From sequence record PX880103.1: a stretch of 64,000 bases of DNA. The stretch is one strand, 5' to 3'. The translations under genes were made by a program, and so were the position numbers. The stretch is from a phage. This document shows, one piece after another, positions 17,824 through 63,203 of the stretch; the stretch's first letter is position 1, and each line of letters begins with the position of its first letter. The notes beneath the pieces are model-generated. The model saw only the letters and a list, made by a program, of their open reading frames with translations. It made no database searches and was not told where the DNA came from.

Positions 17824-19637
17824 TGGTGTTTAACCCTATGCATGATTTCTTTATTTTTACCGAGATTAAATCCGCGCTCGTTCGGATTTCCCAAATAACC
17901 ACATGTTCTTCTTATGGTATTCATCTTTTTAGGATCAGTTTCTCCACAAATAGAACAAACAAATCCATTTTCAGTAGGAGTCATTTCATGGGTACTTCCA
18001 CATGTAAAACATTTATCTACTGGCATATTAACACCAAAATAATCTAAATGTTGTGCAGCATAATCCCATACGGCCTCAAGACCTTTTAAGTTATTTTTCA
18101 TATCAGGAAGTTCAACATAAGAAATGTGACCACCTGTCGCAATGAAATGATACGGCGCTTCACGAGAAATCTTTTCAAACGGAGTAATATTTTCTTCTAC
18201 TGAAACATGGAAACTGTTAGTGTACCAGCCTTTATCGGTAACATCTTTTACACTTCCATATTTTTCTGTATCAAGTTTACAGAAGCGATAACAAAGGTTT
18301 TCAGCAGGAGTCGAATATAAACTAAAAGCAAATCCGGTTCTTTCAGTCCACTGTTTAAGATGAGCATTCATTTTAGTTAAAATTTCTCGTCCAATATCAC
18401 GACCGACAAGAATATTCAATTCGTGAATACCAATGTATCCTAAAGACACTGAACTTCTACCGTTTTTAAATAACTCAATTATGTCGTCATCAGGTTTAAG
18501 ACGAACCCCGAATGCACCTTCTTGGTAAAGAATAGGAGCAACAGTTGCTTTAACTCCTTTTAAGGAACTAATTCTACACATCAAAGCTTCAAAACACAAA
18601 TCCATTCGTTCATTGAATAATTCAACAAATTTCTGTTCATTGAACTGTGTTCCAATATAAGAATCTAACGCAATGCGAGGAAGATTCAGTGTTACAACAC
18701 CAAGATTATTACGTCCATCAAGAATTTCATTGCCAGTCGAATCTTTCCATACGCTCAAAAAACTACGGCAACCCATTGGAGAAACAGGAACAGATGAACC
18801 AGTGATAGCTTTATTGTTCTTAGCTGAAATAATATCAGGATACATCCTTTTGCTTGCACACTCTAGAGCAAGCTGCTTAATATCATAGTTCGGATCGTCT
18901 TTATAAAGATTAACACCTTCTTCAACGAACATAACAAGCTTAGGGAAAATAGGAGTTATTCCATCACGACCAAGACCTTTAATACGATTTTTCAGAATTG
19001 CTTTCTGAATCATTCGTTCAGTCCAGTCAGTTCCCGTACCAAATGTAATTGTTACAAAAGGAGTCTGTCCGTTTGAACTAAAGAGAGTATTTACTTCATA
19101 TTCATAAGCTTGGAATGCATCGTATACGTCTTTTTCTGTTTTAGATTGAGCATAATTCAACGCATCAGCGATTTGCCATTTTTCTGCATCCTCAATATGT
19201 TTTGCATAGGTGCGTTTAACATAAGGAGAAAGTACTTTATCTACATTCGCAAAAGTCGTTCCGCCATATTGGTGAGAAGCAACTTGTGCAGTAATTTGTG
19301 CCATAATTGCAGTAGCAACGCCAATTGATTTAGGAGTTTCAATCTGTGCATTACCTAGCTTAAATCCGTTCTCAAGCATTCCTTTTAAATCTACTAAACA
19401 GCAATTAGTAAATGGAAGAGCAGGGGAATAATCAATATCATGGAAATGAATAATTCCGCTTTCATGCGCTTTCATAATAAAAGACGGGACCATATTTTTG
19501 GCAATGTGTTTAGACACAATACCAGCCATAAGGTCCCGTTGAGTTGGAAAAACACGAGAATCTTTATTAGCATTCTCGTTTAAAAGGTCTTTATTAGTTT
19601 TATGAATCAATCCTTCAATTTCTTTTTCAATTGTCAT
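17820..19637 (-). CDS. nrdD: Anaerobic ribonucleoside-triphosphate reductase (class III), uninterrupted
   Basis: 605 aa continuous ORF; C-terminal glycyl-radical motif RTCGYLG and Cys-rich zinc site. Confidence 0.92.
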   Translation of the reverse strand: MTIEKEIEGLIHKTNKDLLNENANKDSRVFPTQRDLMAGIVSKHIAKNMVPSFIMKAHESGIIHFHDIDYSPALPFTNCCLVDLKGMLENGFKLGNAQIETPKSIGVATAIMAQITAQVASHQYGGTTFANVDKVLSPYVKRTYAKHIEDAEKWQIADALNYAQSKTEKDVYDAFQAYEYEVNTLFSSNGQTPFVTITFGTGTDWTERMIQKAILKNRIKGLGRDGITPIFPKLVMFVEEGVNLYKDDPNYDIKQLALECASKRMYPDIISAKNNKAITGSSVPVSPMGCRSFLSVWKDSTGNEILDGRNNLGVVTLNLPRIALDSYIGTQFNEQKFVELFNERMDLCFEALMCRISSLKGVKATVAPILYQEGAFGVRLKPDDDIIELFKNGRSSVSLGYIGIHELNILVGRDIGREILTKMNAHLKQWTERTGFAFSLYSTPAENLCYRFCKLDTEKYGSVKDVTDKGWYTNSFHVSVEENITPFEKISREAPYHFIATGGHISYVELPDMKNNLKGLEAVWDYAAQHLDYFGVNMPVDKCFTCGSTHEMTPTENGFVCSICGETDPKKMNTIRRTCGYLGNPNERGFNLGKNKEIMHRVKHQ

Positions 19638-20107
19638 TTTAAACTCTTTCTAAGCTGCTTCTTAAATGAAGCTATTAACTGTGTTTTGGTGTCAGATTCA
19701 TTATATTCAAATCCTCTTTGAAGCATCTCGGCCATCATTTCCTCTTTTCCTAAACGAGAAAATTCCTTTGATTTATCTCCAACAAAGTTAGGGTGAATAT
19801 TATTTTGGGTGTAATCGGATTTTAAATAAGTAAGTAAATTTTCTAACCATTCAAGATAATCAACACCTTGTCCCTTTAAGCCAGAACGATTAAATTTGTG
19901 CTTCATTTGACCTTCTGCAGCATTGCAGAGATTACAAAGCAATCCACGCACCTTTCCTGCTTTTGGTCCATTTAATTCATGGTCATGGTCGAGGTGATTA
20001 GCTTGAACATCAGGATTTAGTTCTCGTTGGCAAATTAAGCATTTACCGTTTTGTGCATCATAAAATTTCTGTTTTTCTTCTTTATATAATTTGCCAGTCA
20101 ATAACAT
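19634..20107 (-). CDS. 49: Endonuclease VII (Holliday junction resolvase)
   Basis: 157 aa; CxxC zinc motifs and HLDHDHE; T4 gp49 length. Confidence 0.85.
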   Translation of the reverse strand: MLLTGKLYKEEKQKFYDAQNGKCLICQRELNPDVQANHLDHDHELNGPKAGKVRGLLCNLCNAAEGQMKHKFNRSGLKGQGVDYLEWLENLLTYLKSDYTQNNIHPNFVGDKSKEFSRLGKEEMMAEMLQRGFEYNESDTKTQLIASFKKQLRKSLK

Positions 20108-36294: not shown

Positions 36295-36573
36295 TTATTC
36301 TTTAAATCTAATCAATTTATTCATAGACTTTGAAACTTCTGCACGGACCTCATGTAGGTTTTTAAGTTGTTCAAGACGTTGCTCATAGTAAGCAATTTCA
36401 TCTTCTTCGAGACAGTCCTGCGAATCTTCTTTAAGATACCGTGCATAGTCCTGGAAAGCGTTACGGACTACTTCCTGGAAGTCATCAAGACTTTGAATTT
36501 TCTTAGGAGCAACAGATACACGACGAGGGGCAGTATAATACTCGTAACCAAACCCTGCGCTTAATTGAGCCAT
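36295..36573 (-). CDS. Hypothetical protein (vs.3 position)
   Basis: Start set at internal Met MAQLSAG. Confidence 0.4.
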
Positions 36574-37421: not shown

Positions 37422-37751
37422 TCAATTAGAAAATAAATTTATCCAAGATTGTTCTTTAATTAAAAATGGCTCAGAATCATATGCCATTAAACTTTGGGTG
37501 ATTAGTCCTTTAAAAGGCCCATCAATAAATTCCATGGTAAAATATGGAATTTTATTCATTAACTTTGCATTAGGAGCAGTACACAAAACTCTACATCCTT
37601 TGAATACACCTTTTTGTAATTTGTATTGCTTAGGATAAAATTCGCTCAAGACGTTGTTATTTGCCAAAATTTCAAAATGATTCACCAATTTATTTTTAAT
37701 AGTTTTTGGCGAAAAATAAAGATATTCGAAAAGTTGTGTGTCTGTCATCAT
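37422..37751 (-). CDS. Hypothetical protein
   Basis: 109 aa ORF. Confidence 0.45.
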   Translation of the reverse strand: MMTDTQLFEYLYFSPKTIKNKLVNHFEILANNNVLSEFYPKQYKLQKGVFKGCRVLCTAPNAKLMNKIPYFTMEFIDGPFKGLITQSLMAYDSEPFLIKEQSWINLFSN

Positions 37752-38335
37752 TGCATTCCAATTACGAAAAACTGTGGACGAGTAATACCATCAATGCAAC
37801 ATTTACTGTTGCAGCAGTGTTGTACAGTTTCAATATGAATATCGTAAATTTTATCCATATCAGGAGATTTAACAGGCTCATCGATTATATACAAAATCCG
37901 CGAAAGCGATAAACCTCTGAACTTGCTACCTCTATTACCAACAAAACTACGGACAGAATCAGTAAATAAACGGAATCGAATATCATCGCTAGAATAACGA
38001 GAAAATTCTTTTTTAATGTTGCCAGCAGAAATTTTAGCATAAGCTGAAGTATTAGAAAGAACAATAACTGTTCCGCCGTCATACAGCCAATTAGCAGCGA
38101 AGTTAGTCACAGCAGTTGATTTACCAGATTGACGTCCACCATCTAGTCGAAGTGTGCAATACTGCTTAAGTAAGTCTTCAAATGGCGGGATATAATCATT
38201 TTTACAAATTTCTTCTACTCTAGCATCAGAATGGTGTGTAAAAGCATTCATCAGGGATAGATAAGGACCAGTTAAAAATGTTCTCATTTTGTTCTCTCTA
38301 AATTTGGGCCATTCCGTGGCGCATGAATTGTCCAT
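37748..38335 (-). CDS. Small P-loop NTPase
   Basis: Walker A GGRQSGKST and Walker B ILYIIDEP; true start may be the internal Met at 38287. Confidence 0.5.
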   Translation of the reverse strand: MDNSCATEWPKFRENKMRTFLTGPYLSLMNAFTHHSDARVEEICKNDYIPPFEDLLKQYCTLRLDGGRQSGKSTAVTNFAANWLYDGGTVIVLSNTSAYAKISAGNIKKEFSRYSSDDIRFRLFTDSVRSFVGNRGSKFRGLSLSRILYIIDEPVKSPDMDKIYDIHIETVQHCCNSKCCIDGITRPQFFVIGMQ

Positions 38336-38506
38336 TTCTGTATTTACCCATTACCGCACTTGGGCTCGACCTTATTACAGGTTGGCGGGAATCCCTCACA
38401 GAATCATGAGGTCCAGCTTGTTCCCATGTTATTTGAATGTAAATATTTTTGCCTTAATACTTATACCAGTGTGGCTTCATTAAAATTTTTTCATCGAGTC
38501 ATTTTA
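38336..38506 (-). pseudogene. Possible remnant of the denV (endonuclease V) locus: promoter, SD and a 3-codon ORF (MTR-stop) followed by non-coding, relatively GC-rich sequence
   Basis: Minus strand reads GGAGAGG-N5-ATGACTCGATGA just downstream of an early promoter; T4 endonuclease V begins MTR; no ORF of 60 aa or more in 38336..38559. Confidence 0.3.
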
Positions 38507-38523
38507 CCTCTCCAAGTAATTAT

Positions 38524-38559
38524 GAATATACTATCACAATTTTAGGAGAAAGTAAACTG
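38524..38559 (-). promoter_or_regulatory. Early promoter
   Basis: Minus strand AACAGTTTACTTTCTCCTAAAATTGTGATAGTATATTC, directly after ipII stop. Confidence 0.55.
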
Positions 38560-38862
38560 TTATTTACCTTTAATTACTTTAGCTGCTTCGATAGCCGCTT
38601 GCTGAAGGTCATCCATAGACATACCGAATTTAGAAGCAAAGTTATCAATTTTCTTTTCGACAGCATTCAAAGGCTTGGCCTGTTTACCTTCATTAGCGCC
38701 AGGAAGAGCGAGAATACGCTCTTTGTCAATATAAAGGCTTACAAGTTTCTTACGGTCTTTATCGGACAAATCATGAAATGAATGGGCCTTTTTATTTATA
38801 GCGGCTTCTAATTTACCTGCACTCACTCGCGCTTCAGTAATAAATTCTTGATATGTTTTCAT
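38560..38862 (-). CDS. ipII: Internal protein (IPII-like) with capsid-targeting leader
   Basis: Starts MKTYQEFITEA (cleavable capsid targeting sequence); 100 aa; position downstream of ipIII. Confidence 0.6.
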   Translation of the reverse strand: MKTYQEFITEARVSAGKLEAAINKKAHSFHDLSDKDRKKLVSLYIDKERILALPGANEGKQAKPLNAVEKKIDNFASKFGMSMDDLQQAAIEAAKVIKGK

Positions 38863-38903
38863 ATGTTTCCTTTAAATGTAAATAGGCCTAAGTATCGGCC
38901 TTA

Positions 38904-39482
38904 TTAATTACCACGGGCTGCATTAGCAACGGCATAAGCGTACTGAACATTAGCGTCCTTAAACGTACCTTTAGAGGTATCTATTTCTGCCTTAAAGCCG
39001 CCTTTAGCCATAACATCGGCAAATTCTTTACGGAAAGCCATTGCATCAAGACCTTTCCATGATGATTTGTGCTTGGCGAATTCAAGACCAGCGTAGTTGA
39101 CAGCCTTAGCTAATTTATTATCAATGACCCATTTACCGGCTTTAGGCACAAACTTCGGACCTTTTTGTTTAGAGAACAGTTTTAAATTCCAGCGACGAAG
39201 ATCACTGTCGGCTTTAACAAAAGCTGCGTCTAAGTTACTAGCAACAACATCTTCAATATGAGCAAATTTAAGTCCGTCAACTTCAATATTTAAATCGGTA
39301 CGCCAGCGAAGTCCTTCCCAAGCGAAAGCTTTAAAATCGGAAGCTTTTGTAGCTAAGTATCGTTCAATAGGGGCTGTTTTAGGGTCAAAGCCGTTTCCAC
39401 CACGATAGTTCCACTCATCTTTATTAATGCCTTTGGCCTTTACTACAGAAGCTTCAGCGATAAATTCTTTATACGTTTTCAT
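38904..39482 (-). CDS. ipIII: Internal protein (IPIII-like) with capsid-targeting leader
   Basis: Starts MKTYKEFIAEA; 192 aa. Confidence 0.6.
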   Translation of the reverse strand: MKTYKEFIAEASVVKAKGINKDEWNYRGGNGFDPKTAPIERYLATKASDFKAFAWEGLRWRTDLNIEVDGLKFAHIEDVVASNLDAAFVKADSDLRRWNLKLFSKQKGPKFVPKAGKWVIDNKLAKAVNYAGLEFAKHKSSWKGLDAMAFRKEFADVMAKGGFKAEIDTSKGTFKDANVQYAYAVANAARGN

Positions 39483-39498
39483 GTGTTTCCTTTAATTT

Positions 39499-39816
39499 TT
39501 ATTCTTTAGGGAAGTTTTTAGAATATGCATCATAAAGCTTATTTCCAATACGGCGGAAAACTCTAGCCGCAAAACGATTTTCTGGGTTTTTAATCATGAT
39601 TTGCATCATATAAGTACCCGCGTCAGAAAGAGCTTCTTCATAGTACCCGTTAATTTCTTTAAGAGTCCTACGTTTACCACCAGGACCATCAACAGTGATT
39701 TTCCATTTACCCGTAGAAGTGCGACTTGGCGGCTCAACTTGTTCAATCCAGATATAACCGCCTTCTACACGTTGTCCTGCAGCAGATTCTGCAATAAATT
39801 CTTGATATGTTTTCAT
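39499..39816 (-). CDS. Additional internal protein with capsid-targeting leader
   Basis: Starts MKTYQEFIAES; 105 aa; lies between e and ipIII. Confidence 0.55.
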   Translation of the reverse strand: MKTYQEFIAESAAGQRVEGGYIWIEQVEPPSRTSTGKWKITVDGPGGKRRTLKEINGYYEEALSDAGTYMMQIMIKNPENRFAARVFRRIGNKLYDAYSKNFPKE

Positions 39817-39866
39817 GTGTTTCCTTTAAATATTTTAATTAGTAATTTATCTATTCAAGTAACTGT

Positions 39867-39902
39867 GAATATACTATCACAATTCCAAGAGAAAGTAAAC
39901 AG
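39867..39902 (-). promoter_or_regulatory. Early promoter
   Basis: Near-identical to the 38524..38559 copy; upstream of the extra ip gene. Confidence 0.55.
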
Positions 39903-39904
39903 CT

Positions 39905-40873
<969 letters not shown>

Positions 40874-44601: not shown

Positions 44602-44677
44602 TGGTCGAGGCAGTAGGGATCGAACCTACGACCTAGGACTTAGAAGGTCCTTGCTCTTCCTTCTGAGCTATGCCTCG
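44602..44677 (-). tRNA. tRNA-Arg (anticodon UCU)
   Basis: Hand fold: 7 bp acceptor CGAGGCA/UGCCUCG, anticodon loop CUUCUAA, T-loop UUCGAUC, encoded CCA; 76 nt. Confidence 0.85.
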
Positions 44678-44681
44678 GATT

Positions 44682-44756
44682 TGGCGGACGTGATAGGATT
44701 CGAACCTATAACCAATCGCTTAACAGGCGATCGCTCTGCCATTGAGCTACACATCC
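44682..44756 (-). tRNA. tRNA-Asn (anticodon GUU)
   Basis: Hand fold: acceptor GGAUGUG/CACGUCC, anticodon stem AUCGC/GCGAU with loop CUGUUAA, T-loop UUCGAAU, encoded CCA; 75 nt. Confidence 0.75.
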
Positions 44757-44760
44757 AAAT

Positions 44761-44847
44761 TGGTGGGGAGTGATGGAGTCGAACCACCCGAGTCGCAATG
44801 ACAATGGATTTACAGTCCACACCGCTACCTCTACGGGATAACTCCCC
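44761..44847 (-). tRNA. tRNA-Tyr (anticodon GUA), class II with long variable arm
   Basis: Acceptor GGGGAGU/ACUCCCC, anticodon loop CUGUAAA, variable arm resembles bacterial tRNA-Tyr, encoded CCA; 87 nt. Confidence 0.75.
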
Positions 44848-44856
44848 AAATTAATT

Positions 44857-44931
44857 TGGTGGCCCTGGGTGGAATTGAACCACCATCTGGCGATTATGAG
44901 TCGCTTGCTTGAACCTTCCAGCTACAGGGCC
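44857..44931 (-). tRNA. tRNA with anticodon CAU (Met, or Ile if lysidine-modified)
   Basis: Acceptor GGCCCUG/CAGGGCC, anticodon loop CUCAUAA, T-loop UUCAAUU, encoded CCA; 75 nt. Confidence 0.8.
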
Positions 44932-44939
44932 AAATTTTC

Positions 44940-45425
44940 TTATTTTATGTAATATTTATTTAAAAACTTTCTAGCTTGAGTATGGCTAACATTTATAGCG
45001 TTTGCATAATTTTTAATAAAACCTCGTTCATCCATATTAAAATTTTCTAATATTTTTAATCGTCTAGTTATCTCATCTTGACTTAAGGTACTTGCATTAT
45101 TTTTAGAAATTTTTTCTAAGGACTGTGCCGAGTGTTTTCGACCATTAAAATTAAAATTTTTAGATTTTGGAGGAAATCTAGCATTTAATCTCGCATCTTT
45201 TGTATTTTGATTATTAGTTGCGCAATATATGTTATTTAATGAATATGGTCCTTTATCGCCGAAACGGCACATGCAGTATTCATGACCCTTTCTTCCACGC
45301 TTATCATAATTTCCCGTTGATTTCCACCAATGCAACCATTCATCAAAAGTTAAATTCCATTCAATGTTTCTACGTATAGCAGAATTCCGCTGAGAAATAT
45401 ATTTTGCATAATCTTCTTTCATCAC
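44940..45425 (-). CDS. Putative HNH-family homing endonuclease-like protein embedded in the tRNA cluster
   Basis: 161 aa; GHEYCMCRFGDKGPYSLNNIYCATNNQN cysteine/Asn-rich nuclease-like core plus C-terminal helix-turn-helix-like tail; free-standing between tRNA sub-clusters. Confidence 0.45.
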   Translation of the reverse strand: MMKEDYAKYISQRNSAIRRNIEWNLTFDEWLHWWKSTGNYDKRGRKGHEYCMCRFGDKGPYSLNNIYCATNNQNTKDARLNARFPPKSKNFNFNGRKHSAQSLEKISKNNASTLSQDEITRRLKILENFNMDERGFIKNYANAINVSHTQARKFLNKYYIK

Positions 45426-45469
45426 AAATTTCTCTACTTATTCAATACACTGAGCTAAATCAGCAAAAC

Positions 45470-45559
45470 TGGCGGAGGCGATAGGATTTGAACCTATGAG
45501 TCGCCGGAGCGACTGCCGGTTTTCAAGACCGGTGCATTAAACCACTCTGCCACGCCTCC
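45470..45559 (-). tRNA. tRNA-Ser (anticodon UGA), class II
   Basis: Acceptor GGAGGCG/CGCCUCC, anticodon stem CCGGU/ACCGG with loop CUUGAAA, long variable arm, encoded CCA; 90 nt. Confidence 0.85.
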
Positions 45560-45561
45560 AG

Positions 45562-45635
45562 TCTCCGTGGCAGGATTTGAACCTACGACATTCTGCTCCC
45601 AAAGCAGACGCTCTACCAAACTGAGCTACACGGAG
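45562..45635 (-). tRNA. tRNA-Pro (anticodon UGG), CCA not encoded
   Basis: Acceptor CUCCGUG/CACGGAG, anticodon stem UCUGC/GCAGA with loop UUUGGGA, T-loop UUCAAAU; 74 nt. Confidence 0.8.
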
Positions 45636-45645
45636 TAAATTAAAT

Positions 45646-45719
<74 letters not shown>

Positions 45720-45724
45720 AAATT

Positions 45725-45811
45725 TGGTGCGAGAAGTGGGACTCGAACCCACAAGGAAATCATTCCGCAGCATTTTAAGTGCTGTGCCTTTACCAATTTG
45801 ACCATTCTCGC
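45725..45811 (-). tRNA. tRNA-Leu (anticodon UAA), class II
   Basis: Sequence GCGAGAAUGGUCAAAUUGGUAAAGGCACAGCACUUAAAAUGCUG...CACUUCUCGCACCA; matches T4 tRNA-Leu as remembered; 87 nt. Confidence 0.85.
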
Positions 45812-61395: not shown

Positions 61396-63203
61396 TGAAA
61401 CAAAATATTAATATCGGTAATGTTGTAGATGATGGTACCGGTGACTACCTGCGTAAAGGTGGTATAAAAATAAATGAAAACTTTGATGAGCTTTATTATG
61501 AACTTGGTGATGGTGATGTTCCATATTCAGCCGGTGCCTGGAAAACTTATAATGCTTCATCAGGACAAACATTAACAGCAGAATGGGGAAAATCATACGC
61601 TATTAATACATCTTCTGGAAGAGTGACTATAAATCTTCCAAAGGGTACAGTTAATGATTACAACAAGGTAATTAGAGCCAGAGACGTATTTGCTACATGG
61701 AACGTTAATCCAGTTACACTAGTAGCTGCTTCCGGCGATACGATTAAAGGGTCTGCAGTACCAGTTGAAATTAATGTTCAATTCAGCGATTTAGAACTAG
61801 TGTATTGTGCCCCAGGACGTTGGGAATATGTCAAAAATAAACAAATTGACAAAATTACCAGTTCAGACATTAGTAATGTAGCTCGTAAAGAATTTTTAGT
61901 TGAAGTTCAAGGACAAACGGACTTTTTAGATGTTTTCCGTGGAACTAGTTATAATGTAAACAACATCAGAGTAAAACACCGCGGTAACGAATTGTATTAC
62001 GGTGATGTATTTAGCGAAAACAGCGATTTTGGCTCTCCGGGCGAAAATGAAGGAGAACTAGTTCCTCTTGATGGATTTAATATTCGATTAAGACAGCCTT
62101 GTAATATTGGTGACACTGTTCAAATTGAAACATTTATGGATGGTGTATCACAGTGGAGAAGTTCATATACAAGACGTCAAATTAGATTGTTAGATTCAAA
62201 ATTAACGTCAAAAACTTCTTTAGAAGGAAGCATTTACGTTACTGATTTATCAACAATGAAATCAATTCCATTTTCTGCTTTTGGATTAATTCCAGGAGAA
62301 CCTATTAATCCTAACTCTCTTGAGGTTCGTTTTAACGGGATTTTGCAGGAATTGGCTGGCACAGTTGGAATGCCATTATTTCATTGTGTTGGTGCCGATT
62401 CAGACGATGAAGTAGAATGCTCTGTTTTAGGTGGAACTTGGGAACAATCTCATACCGATTATTCAGTTGAAACTGATGAAAACGGCATACCGGAAATTTT
62501 ACATTTCGATAGAGTATTTGAGCATGGTGACATTATCAATATCACATGGTTTAATAATGATTTGGGTACATTATTAACAAAAGATGAGATTATTGATGAA
62601 ACTGATAATCTTTATGTATCGCAAGGACCGGGAGTAGATATTTCTGGTGATGTAAATTTAACAGACTTCGATAAAATTGGTTGGCCAAATGTAGAAGCAG
62701 TTCAATCTTATCAACGCGAATTTAATGCTGTTTCAAATATCTTTGATACGATTTATCCTATTGGAACTATATATGAAAACGCTGTTAATCCAAACAACCC
62801 TGTTACATATATGGGATTCGGCTCATGGAAATTATTTGGGCAAGGAAAAGTTTTAGTTGGATGGAATGAAGATATTTCGGACCCTAACTTTGCTCTAAAT
62901 AACAACGATTTAGATTCCGGTGGAAATCCTTCGCATACTGCAGGTGGAACAGGTGGTTCTACTTCTGTTACATTGGAAAATGCTAATCTTCCTGCAACTG
63001 AAACAGATGAAGAAGTTCTAATAGTTGATGAAAATGGATCAGTCATTGTTGGTGGATGTCAATACGATCCAGATGAATCCGGTCCAATTTACACTAAATA
63101 CCGTGAAGCTAAAGCATCTACTAACTCTACTCACACTCCGCCAACATCAATAACTAACATTCAACCATATATTACAGTTTATCGTTGGATAAGGATTGCA
63201 TAA
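61395..63203 (+). CDS. 10: Baseplate wedge protein
   Basis: 602 aa; T4 gp10 length and synteny. Confidence 0.9.

Follow-up and report, generated by a model that had tools for sequence, protein, structure and literature searches.

The window analysed here is the whole 64,000-nucleotide stretch of phage sequence record PX880103.1, which makes up about 38% of a genome of ~168 kb. It is Tequatrovirus-like, and 849 related phage records were retrieved with it by megablast. On its minus strand the genes follow the order e, a gene for a 105-aa internal-protein-like product, ipIII, ipII, the gap under study, vs.8, vs.7 and vs.6 (Table 1). T4 carries denV between ipII and vs.8, and the megablast alignment of the region to T4 falls into three pieces that together span 416 nt more than the query, which is the length of denV. 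The gap at 38336..38559 offers only a GTG-initiated ORF of 33 aa and plus-strand ORFs of 61-64 aa, in agreement with a sequence-only reading of this DNA, which had found no ORF in it and had taken all of its ~225 nt for the scar of a lost denV. Elsewhere in the window, a tRNA cluster at 44602..45811 (minus strand) holds eight genes (Arg, Asn, Tyr, Met, then Ser, Pro, Gly, Leu) and contains a gap of ~540 nt at 44932..45469.

Table 1. Features of the region from e to vs.8, in coordinates of the 64,000-nt window
Feature	Position	Strand	Remarks
e	39905..40399	minus	
Second denV-type promoter cassette	39846..39914	minus	repeat family D2, 80% identity to 38503..38571
105-aa internal-protein-like gene	39499..39816	minus	driven by second denV-type promoter cassette
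ipIII	38904..39482	minus	
ipII	38560..38862	minus	
denV-type early-promoter cassette, running into the SD	38503..38571	minus	aligned with the cassette of intact denV (G2540-3, T4)
GTTTAC	38557..38552	minus	-35 of the promoter cassette
TAGTAT	38533..38528	minus	18-nt spacer from GTTTAC
SD GGAGAGG	38513..38507	minus	
Mini-ORF ATG ACT CGA TGA (M-T-R-stop)	38491..38502	minus	ATG 38502..38500, TGA 38493..38491
Junction repeat GACTCG, one copy left	38500..38495	minus	inside the mini-ORF
3' remnant of B-type denV allele	38433..38490	minus	~21 last codons, out of frame with the ATG
P1 hairpin	38387..38425	minus	GGGAA 38425..38421 pairs with UUCCC 38391..38387
P1 contents	38411..38394 (inner hairpin)	minus	internal loop CAAGCUGGA and inner hairpin CCUCA-N8-UGAGG
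P2 domain GCCA-ACC ... GGU-AA-U-G-GGU	38346..38386	minus	invariant bulged G
P2 apical sequence CUGUAAUAAGGUCGAGC..AG.GCGGUAA	within 38346..38386	minus	nearly invariant
3' part	38306..38345	minus	tail AAAUACAG (possible pseudoknot strand) and block AUGGA..UGCGCCACGGAAUGGCCC
vs.8, terminase-ATPase-like protein	37748..38299	minus	179 aa; interval includes SD AGAGAGAA at 38299..38292

The upstream part of the gap still carries the beginning of a denV gene. Its GTTTAC and TAGTAT hexamers align with the cassette that precedes the intact denV of T4 and of phage G2540-3, which bears out the early promoter proposed from the letters, and GTTTAC-N18-TAGTAT agrees with the T4 early promoter consensus (GTTTAC, with TAnnnT ~17 nt downstream). 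A generic sigma-70 scan placed this denV-type promoter below threshold and did not call it; its probable identity as a promoter (38557..38528) comes from homology to the denV cassette. The strong SD followed by M-T-R and a stop was likewise found as described, and reads GGAGAGG-TAAA-ATG ACT CGA TGA at 38513..38491 on the minus strand. What the sequence-only reading had overlooked is that the 21 last denV codons are also kept, at 38498..38436. A tblastn search with T4 DenV returned a C-terminal remnant of 20 residues at 38498..38439 (LDEKILMKPHWYKY*GKNIY, 70% identical, E 7e-5), and 20 of the 21 residues are identical to residues 118-138 of the DenV of G2540-3 (tblastn, E 5e-9). The latter is an intact protein of 138 aa, 78% identical to T4 DenV, and its gene is termed the B allele here. 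Within the remnant a TAC codon has become the nonsense codon TAA (38456..38454), and the former denV stop TAA is now CAA (38435..38433), two changes that are common to the phages SP1 and N2.

The event that produced this arrangement could be reconstructed. In a "distant" BLAST search with the 224 nt, phages were found, G2540-3 among them, that match both flanks at ~95% and have 347 extra bases between them. The denV ORF of G2540-3 contains GACTCG at nt 3 and at nt 350, and taking out in silico the 347 nt that separate these copies gives exactly the sequence of the window, so that a direct repeat stands at both ends of the lost segment in the parental allele and one copy is left at the junction, as in repeat-mediated deletions. 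Because 347 is not a multiple of three, the frame now reads M-T-R-stop. In the intact allele, residues 1-86 match Pyr_excise (Pfam PF03013), and residues 4-117 are lost in the deletion; in place of an uninterrupted Pyr_excise ORF of ~138 aa, the window has M-T-R-stop with 347 nt gone. Catalysis by T4 endonuclease V involves the N-terminal amine of Thr2 together with Glu23; Thr2 is still encoded in the window, and position 23 lies within the deleted residues. Compared to T4 denV (endonuclease V, a pyrimidine-dimer DNA glycosylase of PF03013), the window copy shares the ipII-vs.8 locus, the promoter position, the SD, the first 8 nt and the C-terminal 20 residues at the identity given above, while it lacks residues 4-117, has the rest out of frame and carries an extra nonsense codon. 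On this sequence evidence the stretch 38571..38433 is a denV pseudogene formed by repeat-mediated internal deletion, from which no enzyme can arise, and the proposed deletion scar at the T4 denV position is upheld by aligned flanks, C-terminal remnant and reconstructed deletion alike. An ancestor would have had a B-type denV with an early-promoter cassette of its own; loss of 347 bp between the GACTCG direct repeats then joined codon 3 to codon 117 out of frame, in the pattern expected of replication slippage or illegitimate recombination, and left 21 dead C-terminal codons along with the promoter, the SD and M-T-R-stop.

The deletion junction is shared by other phages. A probe of 38 nt across the deletion point, on which intact alleles cannot seed, was matched by 15 records from 14 phages, namely HX01, PHB12, SP1, W143, ZQ3, N2, ECCR664, NHEP29, SH-2, RPN187, BYEP01 and AV112/113/117. 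In all six scar phages inspected, a second, intact denV lies between e and ipII. This second copy is annotated at full length in five of the six, being T4-like (91% identical) in W143, SP1, HX01 and RPN187 and of the B type in BYEP01; in N2 the gene is cut by the edge of the fetched locus. The scar is normally a redundant denV copy. The sequence-only reading had assigned the phage to a denV-lacking "T2/T6 type", and this part was not borne out, as neither T2 nor T6 is among the phages with the GACTCG junction. In T2 no DenV match at all was found, vs.8 is frameshifted and an ip-like gene directly abuts the GC-rich RNA element described below, with no denV remnant in between. In T6 regB abuts e, and the whole vs.3-ipIII block is missing. 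The architecture of the window locus is thus that of neither phage. The likeness to T2 and T6 lies in the predicted phenotype, the absence of a phage-encoded dimer glycosylase: both were reportedly described by Harm in 1963 as natural denV-less T-even phages with the classical v- phenotype.

A tblastn search with seven DenV proteins and a DenV HMM returned from the 64 kb only the remnant and a 14-bit match at 19649..19795, which lies in gp49 (endonuclease VII) and was rejected; no intact denV copy is present in the window. The C-terminal part of gp49 (19634..20107, minus strand) is DenV-like over 49 aa at 40% identity, probably by chance. At 36295..36573 (minus strand) lies a vs.3-like ORF, whose HX01 homologue (60% identical) bears the RefSeq label "pyrimidine dimer DNA glycosylase"; the ORF in the window matches neither Pyr_excise nor any NCBIfam model and is not similar to DenV. 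In T4, vs.3 has been described as TadIV-1, a Thoeris sponge (PMC13243611).

The place where relatives keep their second denV is occupied by other genes in the window. The 69-nt promoter cassette occurs in two copies in the window, which flank the ip genes. BYEP01 has its intact denV behind the same cassette next to e; in the window this place is taken by the 105-aa gene, and the synteny between the two phages is broken at window positions 39846/39831. The 5' end of the ip genes (MKTY(Q/K)EFI leader) is present in three copies, at 38823..38880, 39443..39500 and 39777..39834. The cassette and ip-gene repeats appear to be the lines along which this region is shuffled. In this respect the region resembles the promoter-early stem-loop (PeSL) cassettes that, according to what Arbiol, Comeau and Krisch are said to have described in 2010, shuffle genes in the hyperplastic regions of T4-type phages: two early-promoter copies flank the ip genes, and relatives carry denV behind either copy. 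It differs in that recombination at the window cassettes is deduced from synteny alone, and the likeness concerns the promoter part. The haplotype may have withstood the loss of denV at the scar thanks to another, intact copy of the gene between e and ipII, and in this phage cassette-mediated recombination would have placed the internal-protein-like gene behind the other cassette.

Judged from 64 kb, we infer that the phage is denV-null. With roughly 38% of the genome visible, and with a second copy in its scar-bearing relatives, a functional denV or another pyrimidine-dimer glycosylase might be encoded outside the window. We consider this rather improbable: every inspected relative has the extra copy between e and ipII, an interval that the window covers and that is filled with other genes here, the tblastn and HMM searches gave only the remnant and the weak gp49 match, and the vs.3-like ORF is without a Pyr_excise match. 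With no denV where every examined relative keeps one, the phage is predicted to be UV-sensitive, like a natural v- phage.

The downstream half of the gap proved to be of a different nature. The sequence-only reading had pointed to a GC-rich stretch with a CCTCA-N8-TGAGG hairpin; both are present (GC 0.43-0.49 in 38300..38449 against 0.30-0.32 in 38400..38599; hairpin at 38411..38394), but they do not belong to the scar. The alignment to the T4 denV region that this reading had proposed gave the expected similarity to the denV flanks, and beginning at ~38425 the window matches the sequence that follows the intact denV of T4 with ~95% identity. The claim of a scar stands for 38571..38433 and fails for the GC-rich half (~38425..38306), a denV-independent structured RNA that lies under the vs.8 annotation in T4. 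That the whole 225 nt, GC-rich half included, is scar whose sole present role is that of a long 5' leader for the P-loop gene is hardly credible any more, real as the promoter, the SD and MTR-stop are and correct as the location upstream of vs.8 is: besides being refuted by the T4 alignment, it conflicts with the presence of the GC-rich half at ~95% identity downstream of the intact denV of G2540-3 too, in phages without denV at this locus, and in other viral families.

The distribution of the element extends well beyond T4-like phages. Its 40-nt core CCAACCTGTAATAAGGTCGAGCCCAAGTGCGGTAATGGGT (38385..38346) is found with 92-100% identity in quite different phages, and a 55-nt query matched 1,051 phage records, in which the annotated feature under the match is almost always "none". 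It is carried by many genera of Tevenvirinae and by Vequintavirus, and also by Pylas, a phage of the Schitoviridae, and PsgM04F, an unclassified Pseudomonas phage. T4-like phages have it ahead of vs.8 with or without denV. Outside Tevenvirinae it lies within or beside a tRNA array, and no homologue of vs.8, vs.7 or vs.6 was found near it; in 11 of 11 further non-Tevenvirinae loci scanned, it is located 200-730 nt from the tRNA array and on the same strand. None of 5,426 E. coli genomes matched the element, and an origin by host mimicry or from a prophage was dropped. Pattern scans of metagenomes and bacterial genomes gave only phage-like contigs and a few chance matches, the latter in GC-rich bacterial contigs where the flanking motif is absent (L026, L033, L038, L040-L043). 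Within the window the 20-nt core pattern is unique, with 0 chance matches expected, and a covariance model built here (R1) has a single match (76 bits, 38390..38325). The 4,227 models of Rfam 15, which include twister, pistol, hatchet, HDV-like, tRNA, tmRNA, RNase P and riboswitch models, gave nothing over the element at E<=10 in the window and at E<=1 in the Vequintavirus and PsgM04F loci. ARAGORN reported no tRNA or tmRNA at the element, and a literature search on the sequence, vs.8 and T4 or Tevenvirinae non-coding RNAs found no description of it. It looks like an undescribed family.

Several variants were recorded along the way. Two IMG/VR contigs of ~172-178 kb (L073, L075) carry two tandem copies of the element, and in the second copy P1 is shorter and the core (GGCCAGUCCGCGACGGUAA or GGUCAGCCCGCGGCGGUAA) diverges. 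In Vequintavirus-like loci (L004, L061, L063, L065) the element is flanked by a repeated intergenic sequence, CCCTTAGAGGGCTTGATAGTGC..., and in PsgM04F/Pylas-like loci (L005, L067-L076) by another, GTGCTCTTATCGTTGTGA...; these group-specific repeats may be phage promoters or processing signals. RPN187 (L048, 4631 onward) has a chimeric element with a T4-type P1 and 5' core and a Mosigvirus-type 3' tail, and the crossover within the invariant core appears to reflect recombination. In T2 (L050, AP018813.1, ~61,750-62,430) the normally invariant core has AATG for AAGG, and only a 174-nt ORF is annotated in the frameshifted vs.8; this is one isolated case in which vs.8 and the RNA element decay together.

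The fold of the element is supported by covariation. Upstream (5') of P2 there is in every phage group a hairpin of different sequence, P1, which occurs as GGGAG/CUCCC, AAAGG/CCUUU, AAAGC/GCUUU, AAAGA/UCUUU, GGGG/CCCC, GGAAC/GUUCC, GAAUGU/ACAUUC and GAGUG/CACUC; in alignment A6, its column pairs 9-56 and 18-54 covary. For P2, 93.9% of cells are paired over 40 distinct sequences, with two-sided changes at three column pairs (CG32/GC8; CG31/UA5/GC3/GU1; AU24/UA6/CG5/UG5). The P2 covariation score is 0.422 against 0.108 in shuffles, a value reached by 0 of 500, and at most 0.11 in slid registers. A multi-helix model that combines P2 with a P1 of three segments and two pairings of the tail reaches 92.8% pairing in 13 divergent Tevenvirinae sequences and scores 0.196 against 0.055 when shuffled (0 of 500) and at most 0.029 in slid registers; the sequences are related, and their kinship is ignored by the shuffle control and accounted for by the slid-register control. 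The changes are compensatory, as in structured RNAs, and the G-U pairs among them make the fold strand-specific.

The tail was considered as a pseudoknot strand. In relatives that are not of the T4 type, the pairing of the P1 internal loop with the tail covaries (CCG/CGG, CAC/GUG or CGC/GCG), and one clade has an extra hairpin (CUAGC/GCUAG, CAUC/GAUG or CACC/GGUG). In the T4 type the tail is able to pair with three different partners, and in a generic longest-helix test P1-tail complementarity was at chance level (5.3 against 5.5 bp); a pseudoknot is therefore claimed only where aligned columns covary. Folding of the single window sequence was not better than that of shuffles (z = +1.0). The alignments point to two helices with strong covariation and to a pseudoknot in one subgroup; the fold of the apical core is beyond the reach of covariation, because the core hardly varies. 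An initial pseudoknot with CCGC/GCGG and GCCC/GGGU was dropped since CCGC is variable (L019, Dhakavirus type), and so were the apical pairs predicted by RNAalifold (A15-U33, GGU/GCC), whose partner columns vary freely without compensation. Mimicry of the CR-II region of RNase P RNA (GUGCGGUAA, AUAAGGU) was also abandoned, as the best local score of 18 against E. coli M1 was reached by 102 of 1,000 shuffles. The proposed architecture is a hairpin P1 that varies, followed by an irregular P2, highly conserved and with a bulged G, and supplemented by a pseudoknot in some lineages.

These results bear on the start of vs.8, a gene whose role has recently been addressed (bioRxiv 10.64898/2026.04.30.721860). 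Conservation of the protein begins at MRTFLTGPY / MKFLTPIY in all genera, and the spacers upstream differ in length and frame. The true start is probably the ATG at 38287..38285 and not the ATG at 38335, and given this conserved start the non-coding gap probably reaches 38288. In T4 records (NC_000866.4, 64253-64912) the annotated vs.8 CDS of 216-219 aa starts inside the RNA hairpin, and this annotated N-terminus is probably not real. In the window (38288..38399, minus strand) the T4-type vs.8 frame stops after 33 aa. Although its nucleotides are conserved across Tevenvirinae genera, the reading frame through the 3' block is lost by start loss, a stop codon or frameshifts, and a conserved micro-peptide in this block was discarded for want of a conserved frame.

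We put at roughly 80% the probability that the interval contains two unrelated things, the denV pseudogene and a conserved folded RNA element that precedes vs.8. Three other explanations address one part or the other. The GC-rich stretch could encode an N-terminal extension of Vs.8, as in the 216-219 aa of the T4 records, or a small upstream peptide (MDNSCATEWP...), given that these records start vs.8 at an ATG inside the hairpin, that the frame is open in T4 and that an ORF of 195 aa starts at 38335 in the window. We regard this as very unlikely, because in addition to the early stop of the T4-type frame in the window the spacer before the conserved ATG varies by lengths other than multiples of three, the upstream ATG is lost in three loci (L019, L036, L021), a stop occurs in another (L016) and a frameshift in two (L027, L055), and the core is nearly invariant, would-be wobble positions included, across genera with differing proteins. 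That the invariant core acts as DNA, as a recombination or cassette-shuffling site or as the target of a homing endonuclease, would suit its place in the hyperplastic e-vs region with its many shuffled promoter cassettes, and the crossover inside the core of the RPN187 chimera. It is nonetheless unlikely, since compensatory changes keep the helices paired, in part through G-U pairs, which the opposite strand would read as A-C, the element shares its strand with the adjacent tRNA genes at all 11 further loci scanned outside Tevenvirinae, and no endonuclease gene is consistently adjacent.

The remaining explanation concerns the pseudogene: selection might have retained the SD and the three-codon mini-ORF as an upstream ORF that regulates the RNA or vs.8. 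Of the 15 junction records, 9 have an identical SD-ATG-stop arrangement and the rest deviate at one of 38 bases, but this conservation says little because the haplotype is young (95-100% identity). The arrangement is moreover the automatic product of the repeat-mediated deletion, and T2 and several metagenomic T4-type contigs do without it, so that we find selection on the mini-ORF quite unlikely. In the preferred reading of pseudogene and RNA element, the surviving denV promoter may still fire, and its transcripts would cross the mini-ORF and the remnant into the RNA element and vs.8.

As to what the element does, our best guess is a stable RNA that stands alone and is probably processed, because outside Tevenvirinae it is found on the tRNA strand beside tRNA arrays with no vs.8 downstream. 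A translational operator specific to vs.8 is less likely; retention of the 3' block where vs.8 does not follow (L016 and L053 types) suggests that the element acts alone. A more far-reaching reading, for which we consider the balance to be even, is that the GC-rich half represents a previously undescribed functional class of pseudoknotted RNA that has moved horizontally between virulent phages of no fewer than four unrelated lineages (Straboviridae, with T4 included, Vequintavirus, Schitoviridae and a Pseudomonas phage), usually beside tRNA genes, and that its near-invariant core of ~35 nt is a binding pocket or catalytic centre. Examples would be a ribozyme that processes itself, a sensor for a ligand, or a decoy for host defences that target tRNA or RNA.

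Among known RNAs, close parallels include the stable RNAs C and D of T4, which are encoded in the tRNA cluster and have no known role (PMC3014915). Like these, the element would be a small non-coding RNA of virulent phages that is associated with tRNA genes: Vequintavirus, Pylas and PsgM04F have it inside their tRNA array or next to it. In T4-like phages, it differs in lying ~6 kb from the tRNA cluster. As the motif is single-copy in the window, the element is not RNA C or D itself. With pseudoknotted ribozymes and aptamers (twister, pistol, preQ1-II and SAM-II) it shares a size of ~110 nt, short helices, a near-invariant unpaired core and, in one subgroup, a loop-to-tail pseudoknot pairing. 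It differs from them in that no Rfam 15 model matches, and the CCCAAG-like string recalling twister and pistol is variable in the element; the want of a consistent downstream gene argues against a riboswitch. A review of 2010 noted that T4 had yielded no functionally characterised riboswitch or trans-acting small RNA (PMC3014915).

The scar itself is ordinary, and the element mistaken for scar is the notable part. As a clean and datable example of denV loss in T-even phages, the scar illustrates a route that would lead from duplication via promoter cassettes through a slip between 6-bp repeats to the later loss of the spare copy, and it predicts a natural UV-sensitive phage. The start of vs.8 in the T4 reference records is probably wrong, which touches groups that currently express vs.8 and use its "promoter" (bioRxiv 10.64898/2026.04.30.721860; PMC13243611). 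A covariation-backed RNA in T4 and in ~1,000 other phage genomes, next to tRNA arrays in unrelated families, would be a tractable new phage RNA.
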